DNA of 64,000 nucleotides. Source: Alphaproteobacteria bacterium (GTDB taxonomy: Bacteria; Pseudomonadota; Alphaproteobacteria; Rhodospirillales; WMHbin7). Shown here piece after piece: positions 41,243 to 54,096 of this stretch. Position numbers and translations under genes: made by a program. The stretch is taken from contig JADFZV010000014.1 of the NCBI GenBank assembly GCA_015232335.1, positions 253 to 64,252 of the forward strand, in the 5' to 3' direction. The notes below the pieces were generated by a model. It was not told where the DNA came from and did no database searches. It saw nothing but the letters and a program-made list of their open reading frames with translations. How positions within the stretch are numbered: position 1 is the stretch's first letter; each line of letters opens with the position of its first letter.

Positions 41243-41629
41243 GTGTTGCTTACACATCCAGCGATAAATTTCGAAGATGACCGCGGAGCCATTAAGGACA
41301 TTATGTTCCGAGAGCCTGTTGATCACGTAACCGTAATTACTTCCAAGGCTGGGGTCGTTCGCGGAAATCACTTTCATAATGAGACTGTTCAGTGGGTCTA
41401 TCTTGCCAGCGGCAGCTTGAAATCGCTGACACGCAAGGACAATGGGGCTGTTGAGGTGACCGCGCTTAAGCCCGGGGACTTAATTCTAACAGAAGCGGGC
41501 GAACAACACGCTCTGGAGGCCCTGGAGGATTCTACCTTCTTCGTTTTCACGCGCGGCCCGAGGGGGGGGCAGGACTATGAATCCGACACCTTCCGGCTGG
41601 ATAAGCCGCTACGTGATCCGGCCTTGTGA
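41243..41629 (+). CDS. Cupin-fold sugar isomerase/epimerase (WxcM/FdtA-like)
   Basis: FEDDRGAI, GVVRGNHFHNETVQWVYL, EQHALEALED; contains a G8 tract at 41562-41569 (in frame). Confidence 0.72.
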   Translation: MLLTHPAINFEDDRGAIKDIMFREPVDHVTVITSKAGVVRGNHFHNETVQWVYLASGSLKSLTRKDNGAVEVTALKPGDLILTEAGEQHALEALEDSTFFVFTRGPRGGQDYESDTFRLDKPLRDPAL

Positions 41630-48962: not shown

Positions 48963-49244
48963 TCAGCAGGCCTTTATGACTCGGCCAGAAGTGAAAGTTT
49001 TGGCGCAGCGTCTCGCGCCATTCAGCGATCCTGCCGCTTGCCAGTCCCATAAGCGGCGTGTGCCGCCTCAAAACAGCGTTAGCGGAGTTACGGCAATGTG
49101 GGGCGCGGAAATAGCGATTAAATCATTTCTAAGATTGGGTTCAAGAATTGGCTGAAAGCCTTGACATGATGTCTCATGGCTTTGATCCCCGTTGGGGATC
49201 TGCCGCCCTTGCTCATTCCCCAGCATACAAGGCAGGATGTTGAC

Positions 49245-50828
49245 ATGCAAAAGCTCAGGGTTTTTCTTGCAGACCTGCGCAACGGCTACTTTCCGCAGAT
49301 TCGCTCATCTGTGCCATTGGGTATGGGCTATGTGGCGGCATATCTTCAGAAACGGTTCGGCGACGAGATCCACCAGCAGCTTTTTATCGACGTGGCAAGG
49401 CTTTACGATGAGCTTCGCAAAACGAGACCCGACATTGTCGCTTTTGGCGCCTTTGCCTGGAATGCCGCTCTTACCAACCGGGCTGTCCGGATTACCAGGG
49501 AACTTGCCCCCAATGCTCTTATTGTTGTTGGTGGAGCTGAAGTTTCGCATTTGCCTGAATGCGTCACTCATGACTTTAAAAATCTTCCCGAGGTCGATTT
49601 TGCGATTTCATATGAAGCAGAGATGCCGATGGCAAATCTTGTCGCGGCTTGCATATCTGCAAAGTCGCCTTTTGAAGCAAGAGGCGAGGAGATTCGAGGT
49701 TGCCTGACGCTGAGCGGCACCTCGAAGGGCGCCGCCAGTTTTTGCGAACGAATTACCGACCTTTCTTTGATTCCGTCGCCTTATCTCAGCGGCTTTATGG
49801 ATCCATTCTTGACGGACCCAAGTTCGCTTCCCTTAATTCAGGCATCGCGTGGATGCCCCTACCGCTGCACATACTGTGTTTCAGGAAATCTTGTGTGGAA
49901 CAAGCTGCGCGCCTTTCAGACCTCTCGTGTTCTTGAAGAAATTGATTATGTTCGACAGCATGCCGCTATCGCCAATTTACGCTTTGCTGACGATAATTTC
50001 GGATTGCTTGAGCGCGATCTTGAAATCGCCGAGTACTTGGCAGATCTGCATAGGAATTTCAATTTTCCTCATACGATCTCTCTTTATACCGATAAACATC
50101 CGTCTGAGCGCGTTCTTGAGATCAATCGCCTGCTAGCGCCGATGCAGCCCTTTAATATCAGCCTGCAATCTGTGACTCCGGGCGTCTTGGCGACGATCAA
50201 GCGAATTAATATCAAGCAGGAGGGGATCAAGGCGGCCGTCGCCTTTGCCCGAAATCACAGCCTCATGCCGGTCACCGAGGTTATGTTTCCACTTCCCGAG
50301 GAAACCGTGCAAACATTTTTCGATGGTTTGGATTCTATATTAGAGAATGGATTTGAAAGCATCGCTATCAGCTTTGTTACAATCCTGAAGCACACCGCGT
50401 TGGATCAGCCAGAGGAGCGCGAGAAATATCGACTGGAAACAGGTTTTGTCATATCTCCGAACGGATTCACACTCCACGAACGCTTTCAAAGCGTCGAAAC
50501 GCAGGAACTGGTTATCGCAACCAATAGCGTTTCCAGGCAGGAATATTTCGACAGCATCAAACTGATCTTCTTGTACCGAGTAGCCACAATCCACGGCTTT
50601 TTCCGGGAACTACTTTTCTTCTTCATGAACTATGACATCAGGCCGTTCGAGTTGTTCAGCCGAATTCTGACTGATTCAGATGAATTCCCTTGCGTCTCCA
50701 AGCATGTTTTGTGGATTGCAGAATCGGTTCGTGCCCTATTATTCCATTCAGCCGAGCAGGCGGCACAGCACTATCTATCCACCCCCCCCAGTGGCAGATC
50801 AACCTCCAACGGAATATTATGGGATTGA
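49245..50828 (+). CDS. Cobalamin-dependent radical SAM protein, N-terminal part (frameshifted at a C8 tract)
   Basis: VPLGMGYVAAY, PDIVAFG, VVGGAE, YEAE, ASRGCPYRCTYC, FADDNFGL, PLPEET; last 13 residues lie downstream of the C8 run. Confidence 0.82.
   Translation: MQKLRVFLADLRNGYFPQIRSSVPLGMGYVAAYLQKRFGDEIHQQLFIDVARLYDELRKTRPDIVAFGAFAWNAALTNRAVRITRELAPNALIVVGGAEVSHLPECVTHDFKNLPEVDFAISYEAEMPMANLVAACISAKSPFEARGEEIRGCLTLSGTSKGAASFCERITDLSLIPSPYLSGFMDPFLTDPSSLPLIQASRGCPYRCTYCVSGNLVWNKLRAFQTSRVLEEIDYVRQHAAIANLRFADDNFGLLERDLEIAEYLADLHRNFNFPHTISLYTDKHPSERVLEINRLLAPMQPFNISLQSVTPGVLATIKRINIKQEGIKAAVAFARNHSLMPVTEVMFPLPEETVQTFFDGLDSILENGFESIAISFVTILKHTALDQPEEREKYRLETGFVISPNGFTLHERFQSVETQELVIATNSVSRQEYFDSIKLIFLYRVATIHGFFRELLFFFMNYDIRPFELFSRILTDSDEFPCVSKHVLWIAESVRALLFHSAEQAAQHYLSTPPSGRSTSNGILWD
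50782..50789. repeat. C8 homopolymer at the junction of two reading frames of the radical SAM gene
   Basis: tatccACCCCCCCCAgtggca; removing one C joins the 49245 frame to the 50680-51246 frame. Confidence 0.85.
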
Positions 50829-51246
50829 AAAGGATGCGATTTTTAAGATCCTTCACAGTCAGGAGATTTCTCAGATCATTCGTGAAGTTGCTAGGGCCGG
50901 CCAAATTATCATTGAGCAGCGCGAAGGCCAGCCCCCTCCCAATTTTACCCTTGCCTTAAGCCAGCTGGTTGAAATTTTGACAAGCTCAGTCATACCTTTC
51001 CACCAGCCGGTGCCTGAGATTTTATCAGTCCCAATATCGTTTGATGTCTTGGCTTGGGCGCGAGACAATTTCCAATCCAGGCTAACGAACTACGCCGCGC
51101 CTAGAGATTCCACTGTGACACTCAGAATTCGGAATATTTCTGCTTATAATGAAATTTGGCATAGTAGCAATACGGTGGAGCAAAAATATCGGATTGGCCT
51201 TTCTCCCAATATCAACTCGTCCAACCGACGACGATTCCTCACCTAA
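50791..51246 (+). pseudogene. Out-of-frame C-terminal ~150 aa of the radical SAM gene
   Basis: Open frame VADQPPTEYYGIEKDAIFKILHSQ...FDVLAWARDNF... in +1 frame, with no convincing RBS/start of its own. Confidence 0.62.
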
Positions 51247-51367: not shown

Positions 51368-52786
51368 CTAGGGAAAATATGCTTCCGGCAGAACAAGGCG
51401 CAGATAATCGTATTGGCTGCTGACGTTACGAAGTTTTAGAAAATCGTCATCAGGATATACGTTTATCTCACCGAAATAGTAGCGGTTCAAAAACAGGGCA
51501 AGTCCCTCGGGACTATCCTCTCGCTGCAATGTCCAGGGATCTTTGGTGACGCGGTGGAATCCGTCCCAGAACCAAAGGTCCCGGCCCAGCCAGCCGGGAA
51601 CATAGGTCCAAAACAATTCAAGCAGGCTTCCGGAAAACGGCATGTCAAGGATACTGTAAAGTCCGTTGCTCTCGAAGCGTTGTTCAAGGTCAGAGAGCAA
51701 TGCGGAGGAAAACATGTGGTTGCAGCCGGCAGCATGCCAGCCCGGCTCTGTGCTTTTGTGAAAGAGCACATCCTTATGGGCCACGGTACTGACAACGTCG
51801 CTGATTTTTGTGCGCTTGCCATCGACAAAAATGCATTCCCTCTTTGAATCGCGCCTGAAATCGAATGAGATTCCGAGATGTTCACGAGCAAGGAAAGAGG
51901 CTCTGCTTAGCCAATCTTCAAGCTGACTGCGCTTCATCTCTGGCAACAGGATGCGCAGAAGCTTCTTGAGCCTTCTCGTGTTCCTAGCCCCCGTCAGGGG
52001 ACGGTCCTCAAGAATGGCTGCAAGCAGGCGCATCCGCGAAGTCACTTCAAGGTCCCGAATGTGGTATTGCCTGGTTGGCGCTACCTTGTCGCCCCATGCA
52101 TCAAAAGCTCTTTTCAAATCTGGATCTCTGCAAAGCAATTCCATACAAGCGGCAACAGACTGATTGTGAAAGCGGTCAATGTCCGTTGCCTCGGGGGAGG
52201 TGTCTGGCAAGCCCGGTTGGGTATAAAGGCTTTTGGGAATGCGCCCCTTCATATGTGCGCTGGCCAGGAAGTCGATATTATGGGTGGACGCTGCCTCAAG
52301 GGCGGCGGTCAGGCTAGCCGAGCTTGTCAGCAGGGTTCCTTCTTGGAACGTAAAAAGATAGTCATAATCCTTCCAGGCGCCGGTTCGAATGAATTTTAGC
52401 CAAACGCCAGAGTCAAGCGACTGGTCGTTCTCAAAACTGAGGGATTGAACATTGCGTCGGTTAAGAGCACAGAGCTCATGCAGCCTCTGGTCAAACGGAC
52501 TGAGCTTTGGATTTATGCCCTTTTGTCGAGCAAGCTGGTCATATTCCGCATAGGAACGGCGCTCAACATCGACCGAAAGGGCAATAACAGACTCGGCTGT
52601 CTCTGCCTTTAGCAATTCGCGATATTTGGCATAACCCAGCTTATCGTTGCATGTTCCGTCGCCCTCATTGAAGAGCAGGAAGAGGTCAAAATCCTGGAAA
52701 TCCTGCAGCATAAGTGAAATCAGGCTTCCCATGGCAAGCCACGGCTTGTGGTGCAGGCAAATGGCAACAGCGATCCGGTTCTTCAT
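51368..52786 (-). CDS. Uncharacterised protein, possibly GT-A-like glycosyltransferase
   Basis: 472 aa open frame, translationally coupled (ATGA) to the upstream gene; N-terminus IAVAICLHHK...LISLMLQDFQDFDLFLLFNEG resembles a GT2 start; no clear DxD. Confidence 0.45.
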   Translation of the reverse strand: MKNRIAVAICLHHKPWLAMGSLISLMLQDFQDFDLFLLFNEGDGTCNDKLGYAKYRELLKAETAESVIALSVDVERRSYAEYDQLARQKGINPKLSPFDQRLHELCALNRRNVQSLSFENDQSLDSGVWLKFIRTGAWKDYDYLFTFQEGTLLTSSASLTAALEAASTHNIDFLASAHMKGRIPKSLYTQPGLPDTSPEATDIDRFHNQSVAACMELLCRDPDLKRAFDAWGDKVAPTRQYHIRDLEVTSRMRLLAAILEDRPLTGARNTRRLKKLLRILLPEMKRSQLEDWLSRASFLAREHLGISFDFRRDSKRECIFVDGKRTKISDVVSTVAHKDVLFHKSTEPGWHAAGCNHMFSSALLSDLEQRFESNGLYSILDMPFSGSLLELFWTYVPGWLGRDLWFWDGFHRVTKDPWTLQREDSPEGLALFLNRYYFGEINVYPDDDFLKLRNVSSQYDYLRLVLPEAYFP

Positions 52787-54096
52787 GCGCTGCCCGACGG
52801 ACGGATGCTTGTCCTTGAATGGGCGGCGCGGAGAACTGATTCTGAGATTTCTGCCAGAATTCGACGGCTTACGTTACCATCGACGGGCCCCGTATGCTGG
52901 CTGCGGAAATTCTCAAGGTCCGGGGCAGAAATCGCATAGTCCTCCAGCCTAGTCGTGGAAAAATGACGAATGAACTGATTGGCAGGCATGGTTAAATGAA
53001 AGCCTGAGCGTAGTCCGTAGCCTTTATCAAACCATTCGTGCGACAACTGCGCCTCGTCGACAAAGCCGACGGCATCAACGTCAATAAAGACAATAAATCG
53101 ACCAAGCGCCGCAGCGTCAAGAATAGTGCCGGAACGGTATCCGCAAACCACAAGATCGCTGGCAAGAATGCCAAGCATCATGGCCTGAGGATAGGTTTCG
53201 TTGGCAGGAACAAAGCCGTCGGCAATTGCCGCCTCCTCAGGAAGAAAGAGCGGGCCTTTGGGAACATCCTTCATCCGGCGGGGGACCATGAGAAGAAATG
53301 CGTTATTGGCATCACAGAATTGGCGCAGAGCCTTTAGCGTATCGAAATGGCTCGGCCCTCCTAAGAGGCCACGCAAGGCCCAGGATGGGCTGCGCAAAGT
53401 GAGCAGGGAATCCTTGAAGCGAGACCATCTTGACCGCGCACTCCAAAACACTGAATACCAGGGAGTCGTTACCGATGGGTCCCTTCGCGTGACGTATGAA
53501 TCGGGGACATAAAGCACACATGGTTTGTCTTTTGGAATGCCCAGATCATTTCGAACAGTTTCCCGATCCAGCAGGGCGGCAATGTCTGCGCGTACATATC
53601 CAGTCTGGACGATGCGGCCGCGATATTTCGACAAATCATCCGGCCAGGCCTCAGACACGACGGTTTTCATTACTTCGCCTGTCCAGAAAACAAGATCGGA
53701 ATGTTCAAGGTCGTTGATGTAAAAGGAGTCGGCGACCAAAGCCCATTGTGGCGACAAGAATTTGTCAAGATAAGCGTCGTCCAGAGGCTCTGCAAACAGT
53801 CTGGCGGAGAGGTCCAGATTGTACTTGGCACCAGCCAGCGCCAGGACTGCATCGGATGAAGAGATGACATCCACATATTCCGCCAGGGTCTGTGGCTTTA
53901 TGACCTGTGCCGCGTGCTGCAGGCGTTGCGGAATGTTGTCCAGGGTAGCACTCTGATATGATTTGACTCGACCCGGTTCGATCGAAGGCCCAAGGACAAC
54001 GGTAGCCTTCAAATCAGATCTTTTCGCGGCCGCTTCAATAATCGGTCCCAGTGTTCGGTAATGTGGAATTGACAGAATCAGGAATGTCAATTGCAT
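52783..54096 (-). CDS. Uncharacterised GT-B-like protein (CDP-glycerol glycerophosphotransferase / ulosonate transferase-like)
   Basis: 437 aa; VQTGYVRAD, RNDLGIPKDKPCVLYVP, SDLVVCGYRSGTILDAAALGRFIVFID, DGNVSRRI resemble the C-terminal Rossmann domain of that superfamily. Confidence 0.5.
   Translation of the reverse strand: MQLTFLILSIPHYRTLGPIIEAAAKRSDLKATVVLGPSIEPGRVKSYQSATLDNIPQRLQHAAQVIKPQTLAEYVDVISSSDAVLALAGAKYNLDLSARLFAEPLDDAYLDKFLSPQWALVADSFYINDLEHSDLVFWTGEVMKTVVSEAWPDDLSKYRGRIVQTGYVRADIAALLDRETVRNDLGIPKDKPCVLYVPDSYVTRRDPSVTTPWYSVFWSARSRWSRFKDSLLTLRSPSWALRGLLGGPSHFDTLKALRQFCDANNAFLLMVPRRMKDVPKGPLFLPEEAAIADGFVPANETYPQAMMLGILASDLVVCGYRSGTILDAAALGRFIVFIDVDAVGFVDEAQLSHEWFDKGYGLRSGFHLTMPANQFIRHFSTTRLEDYAISAPDLENFRSQHTGPVDGNVSRRILAEISESVLRAAHSRTSIRPSGSA

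Follow-up and report, generated by a model that had tools for sequence, protein, structure and literature searches.

On balance, and with moderate confidence, we read the locus at positions 49245-51246 of the window (the whole 64,000-nucleotide stretch of DNA analysed here) as one TokK/CysS/KedN5-like gene within an acquired island, carrying a single recent lesion in a run of C and representing a real null allele rather than an evolved switch. The events behind it would be as follows. A low-GC island for the synthesis of a pseudaminic-acid-type sugar or polysaccharide would have been acquired horizontally, bringing the gene with it. A C run encoding Thr-Pro-Pro in a variable loop would then have come to exceed its in-frame length by one base, so that translation would end 13 codons past the run and the last 152 residues of a predicted channel-closing domain would be lost. 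A C8 run is prone to slippage and can slip back, and the allele would therefore be reversible in principle.

Direct reading of the sequence gives an A at position 50781 and then a run of eight C at 50782-50789. The frame that begins with the ATG at 49245 stays open until the stop codon at 50826-50828 and yields a product of 527 residues, made up of 514 native codons and 13 out-of-frame codons. In the +1 frame no stop codon occurs from about 50671 until 51244-51246; the chance that its 152 codons downstream of the run would stay open is about 0.001 by simple arithmetic, (61/64)^152. Reading one base fewer across the C8 run generates the junction string HYLSTPPVADQPPTEYYGIEKD and a continuous product of 666 residues. 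The two frames, the position of the run, the 666-residue protein and its junction had all been proposed in a preliminary description of this DNA, and each was reproduced here. The query used in the searches below, P0003, is this 666-residue read-through protein, which is one residue off the pure removal of one C (AGTG read as S). The features of the locus are collected in the table.

Table. Features of the interrupted radical SAM locus (positions in the window).
Feature	Position	Strand	Remarks
Shine-Dalgarno-like sequence AGGCAGGA	49230..49237	+	7 nt 5' of the start codon; from reading of the sequence
Upstream frame	49245..50828	+	B12-binding domain, radical SAM core, first third of the C-terminal domain, 13 out-of-frame codons, stop
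C8 homopolymer	50782..50789	+	Place where the frame shifts by +1; encodes Thr-Pro-Pro in a predicted variable surface loop
Downstream +1 frame	50791..51246	+	Last 152 residues of the C-terminal domain, through the conserved NSSNRRR; stop position as in homologues
Whole gene if unshifted	49245..51246	+	666 aa; predicted TokK/CysS-like three-domain cobalamin radical SAM enzyme

Comparison with homologues places both the start of the gene and the break within it. The N-termini of the homologues (MxVFLADL...) agree with a start at 49245. In the alignment, frame 0 tracks the family consensus through ...AEQAAQHYL and the +1 frame tracks it from ...EYYGIEKD, which confines the frame shift to 50778-50808, an interval where the C8 run is the sole homopolymer longer than two. 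Beyond it, the downstream frame holds the family-conserved residues and has no second stop or shift.

That the two frames belong to one gene is indicated by the whole family. When P0003 was searched against a collection of 5.8 billion proteins, the top match was the window's own 527-residue product, and the 65 closest homologues (29-42% identity, 621-731 residues) were all single chains covering 90-100% of the fused 666-residue protein. Within its own genome the query falls into two neighbouring matches that lie in different frames; a related genome of the same order has a single open frame of 704 residues that matches it. Conservation continues past the junction, at E547, D600, W604, L613, R662, R663 and the C-terminal NSxNRRR motif, in alignments of both 16 and 73 sequences. 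The reading frame is thus interrupted relative to full-length homologues, as it would be in a frameshift null allele or pseudogene. The earlier proposal of a single split radical SAM gene holds up well on this evidence: the homologues span the junction, and aligning them revealed none that ends near residue 520. No orthologue above 42% identity was found in 40 related genomes or in the 5.8-billion-protein collection, a scan of metagenome contigs for the exact flanks with a variable gap between them gave no match, and the genomes that are closest in MutS, at 98% identity (an Alphaproteobacteria MAG), evidently lack the gene. Because no near-identical genome carries it, the ancestral length of the run is deduced rather than seen.

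The read-through protein has the two domains that define class B radical SAM enzymes, a B12-binding Rossmann domain (PF02310, E 1.9e-10, 41 bits against a cut-off of 32.1) and a radical SAM core (PF04055, E 5.3e-10) with a CxxxCxxC cluster motif. The latter reads CPYRCTYC, and its Cys204, Cys208 and Cys211 are invariant in 73 sequences; all other family-invariant residues are also intact in the frameshifted gene. No Pfam model matches the last 150 residues of the read-through protein. The best NCBIfam model is that of the KedN5 family (NF033712, E 2.6e-50, model positions 13-442 of 624), but its score of 171.3 bits is far under the curated cut-off of 700 bits, and the protein is therefore a relative of that family and not a member. 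Among solved structures, CysS (5.7e-43) and TokK (3.9e-42) are the nearest in sequence, both over residues 25-462.

An AlphaFold2 model of the read-through protein, computed from the 73-sequence alignment, has a mean pLDDT of 91.8 and a pTM of 0.90. The junction falls in a loop between two helices (residues 513-523, pLDDT about 73), and the model past it is confident (pLDDT 84-98 over residues 521-660). In Foldseek searches the whole model aligns to TokK (7kdx) and CysS (9n1b) with TM-scores of 0.76-0.81, its N-terminal domain aligning to their Cbl domain, while TsrM, OxsB and others match the first two domains only. The large C-terminal domain that packs on the barrel in TokK/CysS-type methylases is present in the read-through protein only. 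Together, the single full-length homologues, the conserved residues past the junction and the confident fold indicate one gene with a frameshift; by alignment and model this is one gene with one lesion, located in a predicted variable loop. The enzyme is most likely a TokK/CysS/KedN5-like class B radical SAM protein and a putative C-methylase, the methylase chemistry being likely in view of its relationship to TokK, CysS and KedN5.

As encoded, the product lacks residues 515-666, about two thirds of the C-terminal domain; it had been described beforehand as keeping the B12-binding and radical SAM domains, and Pfam finds both of them in the truncated form, which drops 152 conserved C-terminal residues. 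In TokK and CysS the C-terminal domain (residues 433-630 in CysS) forms the substrate channel, and contacts with the substrate or SAM lie near the C-terminus (Asn515 and Tyr652 in TokK, Asp607 and His617 in CysS) (bioRxiv 10.1101/2021.07.10.451909; PMC12846815). From this channel role in what are distant homologues, with about 20% identity to the protein, we infer that the encoded product is inactive. The gene as it stands is most likely a null allele, and the glycan modification that it would confer is most likely missing.

The genome (3.43 Mb, 89 contigs) has 59.3% GC and the window is a 52% GC island, within which the frameshifted gene is at 46-49% against 59% for the genome. At its start the window holds a pseudaminic-acid-like operon with PseB-like, PseC-like, B12 radical SAM, cytidylyltransferase, GNAT, PIG-L and NeuB genes. 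Further on there are glycosyltransferases, many SAM methyltransferases, a TylC3-type sugar C-methyltransferase, more radical SAM genes, a DUF4910 protein, a Wzy_C/methyltransferase fusion and gmd. The neighbours of the frameshifted gene are themselves glycosyltransferases and methyltransferases, and the glycan-biosynthesis setting suggested previously is borne out by the pse-like genes, NeuB and the glycosyltransferases. In two alphaproteobacterial genomes the orthologues lie among NeuB, PseB/PseC-like, cytidylyltransferase, DUF4910 and LIC12162 genes. From these clusters and from the window itself, it is reasonable to suppose that the enzyme modifies a nonulosonic-acid-type sugar or its substituent. 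Judged by its low GC relative to the genome and by the failure to find any orthologue above 42% identity, the gene is accessory, and genes of this kind tolerate inactivating mutations.

Other features of the island and the genome deserve mention. A cassette at 28281-30830 encodes an AMP-ligase, a 92-residue ORF and an AAC(3)-like N-acyltransferase; the ORF (29728-30006) contains a DSLG motif like that of carrier proteins and has no Pfam match. In Micromonospora, the orthologues of the frameshifted gene adjoin genes for an AMP-ligase, a BtrH_N protein and a carrier protein (PP-binding). The cassette and these neighbours hint at acyl groups tethered to a carrier as possible targets of the enzyme family, in parallel with the pantetheinylated substrates of TokK and CysS. 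Two neighbouring ORFs of 472 and 437 residues on the minus strand (51368-54096), which lie directly 3' of the frameshifted gene, match nothing in Pfam or NCBIfam. Two pairs of overlapping ORFs, 59289-61628/61460-62425 and 62415-63608/63445-63999, were suspected of further frameshifts; this was rejected, the overlaps resulting from the choice of the most upstream start; by Pfam, gmd and the glycosyltransferases at these pairs are intact. Across contigs C5 and C11 of the genome there are six NeuB homologues, two in the window and four on C11. The B12 radical SAM query has fourteen matches in the genome, many of them on C11, and this contig appears to hold a second, larger nonulosonic-acid/radical SAM island. 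Maf/DUF115 (PF01973) was sought in the window and not found; the only MptE/Maf-like match is on C11.

The strongest competitor of a real null allele is an error of sequencing or assembly, in which the true run would be in frame, the 666-residue gene intact and the extra C present in the consensus alone. Homopolymers are classic sites of miscalled indels, the assembly is a draft in 89 contigs, and the gene has no other decay and a fully conserved downstream frame, just as an intact gene would look. The other G/C runs of the genome speak against this explanation. There are 129 runs of at least 8, and 51 of these sit at least 60 codons deep in uninterrupted ORFs of at least 250 codons, 17 of them being 9-11 bases long. 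When a frameshift-like pattern was defined as a long ORF ending just past a run with another frame opening there, it was found at 3.1% of G/C runs of at least 8 and at 2.5% of random positions. Eight runs of this length are positive for the pattern, and on inspection seven of them proved to be normal boundaries between genes or frames that do not code. The C8 run alone breaks a gene, and the remaining 128 runs break none. Even the longer runs of the window are in frame (G10 in gmd, C9 in a glycosyltransferase-like gene). At runs of 6-7 there is a small excess of the pattern (3.7% against 2.5%), for which an influence of local GC on spurious ORFs is a possible cause. That the other runs are clean indicates that the assembly is not prone to homopolymer errors, which makes an error at this site less likely without removing it; we consider it rather unlikely and infer that the extra base is present in the DNA and not merely in the assembly. 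Outside the window, the longest homopolymer of the genome by far is a C22 run at C19:37261-37282, where there is no convincing ORF.

If the null allele is real, it may still be asked whether it is one state of an evolved phase-variable locus, in which cells with an ON run (C7 or C10) and cells with an OFF run (C8) would be mixed and one glycan modification would vary among them. An ON/OFF switch of this kind had been put forward in the preliminary description. Several observations are in its favour. Firstly, the run lies inside the coding region of a gene in a glycan island, as hypermutable repeats of switch genes do. Secondly, three more long in-frame G/C runs are found in genes of the island (G8 in a cupin gene, G10 in gmd and C9 in a glycosyltransferase-like gene), a suggestive but small set, and at the gmd and glycosyltransferase sites the runs are interrupted or absent in same-genus orthologues. 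Thirdly, Campylobacter glycan loci include predicted phase-variable radical SAM genes (in C. fetus) and the DUF4910-family gene Cj1295 (PMC6321876; PMC3068675).

Other observations speak against a switch. A run at this site is absent from all 72 aligned homologues, and no homologue was seen to have so much as a Pro-Pro there. Genome-wide, G/C runs of at least 8 are about 2-fold rarer than composition predicts (129 seen, about 289 expected), and the window is not significantly enriched in them (of its 20 runs of at least 6, 4 reach 8, compared with 125 of 1469 elsewhere; Fisher p = 0.09). The repeat is thus neither conserved among homologues nor over-represented relative to composition, as that of a contingency locus would be. 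MutS is intact. With eight bases, the run is near the lower limit of the lengths reported to vary, and the ON length of C7 is short against the 9-10 of most Campylobacter runs (PMC6321876). Finally, CCC is the preferred Pro codon of this genome (50%), so that a C7 run easily arises by chance from Thr-Pro-Pro. With no run in homologues, no enrichment of G/C runs, an intact MutS and an in-frame length of only C7, the proposed switch is not supported, and we regard an evolved phase-variable locus as improbable.

The other runs of the island can be described individually. A small cupin gene (41303-41629), just 3' of the TylC3-type sugar C-methyltransferase, contains the G8 run (41562-41569) in frame close to its C-terminal end. 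The G10 run (62072-62081; C10 on the plus strand) is in frame in an intact gmd on the minus strand (61460-62425) and codes for Leu-Gly-Gly-Gly; the gmd of the closest same-genus orthologue encodes identical residues from the interrupted GGGGGCGGC, and two others differ and have no run. The C9 run (63613-63624) makes up codons 2-4 (Pro-Pro-Pro) right after the ATG of the glycosyltransferase-like gene. The 129 codons of that gene available in the window have no Pfam match, and its N-terminus, MPPPVLFLFKSGR, matches orthologues that adjoin gmd in related genomes and are without the run. Elsewhere, switch genes typically carry their runs at such a 5' position. An extended proposal would make the island a switch set, with C8 OFF here, G10 ON in gmd and C9 ON. 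The switched enzyme, in this proposal an iterative C-methylase of the TokK/CysS type, would assemble a branched substituent on a pseudaminic-acid-type sugar, or else on its carrier-bound acyl precursor. We consider this combination improbable.

Recoding, whereby full-length enzyme would be made from the C8 allele by a +1 slip of tRNA-Pro on CCC-C or by transcriptional slippage, is very improbable as an explanation of the locus; in that case the frameshift would be tolerated or would have a regulatory role. The shift required would be +1 on CCC CCC before AGT, which is a rare codon here (3.3 per 1000), and CCC-N sites are prone to +1 slippage. Against it, the homologues have neither a frameshift nor a run at this position, there is no evident stimulatory element, and nothing points to a programmed event. 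Some full-length protein could still arise by +1 slippage at a low level on CCC-C; spontaneous slippage at such sites is usually about a per cent or less. [quoted passage not shown]

The null allele that we favour is in itself a minor matter: annotators should treat the locus as one gene, and one glycan modification is probably missing. Of more lasting interest are the proteins to which it leads, at least 65 uncharacterised proteins of 621-731 residues with the TokK/CysS fold, of which the alphaproteobacterial ones are found in nonulosonic-acid clusters. This suggests a radical C-methylation chemistry, so far undescribed, in the biosynthesis of surface sugars. Were the locus a true switch after all, homopolymer-based phase variation of glycans would extend to an environmental, mismatch-repair-proficient and GC-rich lineage, a free-living Rhodospirillales-type alphaproteobacterium.

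Several known systems can be compared with the locus. It resembles an ordinary frameshift null allele of an accessory island in that one indel, at a short homopolymer, interrupts a gene that is dispensable and horizontally acquired. Unlike an ordinary pseudogene, it has no further decay, and is thus either very recent or not real. The conserved residues downstream and the absence of any other stop or shift point to a recent lesion, and the locus probably represents either a recent knockout of an ordinary kind or a slip in the assembly. It also resembles the poly-G/C genes of flagellar glycosylation, capsule and LOS in Campylobacter, where a run likewise lies in the coding sequence of a glycan-modification gene and an out-of-frame length leads to truncation. 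In those genomes, which have about 30% GC, the runs are non-random, and they are conserved within homology groups but vary from strain to strain (PMC6321876). In contrast, the present genome has 59% GC, runs are under-represented, and the run is of eight bases (seven when ON) and confined to this gene alone.

The closest likeness in protein terms is to TokK (7kdx/7kdy) and CysS (9n1b-d), which are cobalamin-dependent radical SAM iterative C-methylases. The read-through protein shares with them a Rossmann B12 domain, a radical SAM barrel with CxxxCxxC and a large helical C-terminal domain, and is of comparable length (666 residues, against 645-681). It differs in having only about 20% identity to them, the sequence match (about 1e-42) being limited to the first two domains and the C-terminal domain being undetectable by sequence. 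Unlike TokK and CysS, which belong to antibiotic clusters, this gene lies in a surface-glycan/nonulosonic-acid island, and the copy found there is frameshifted.
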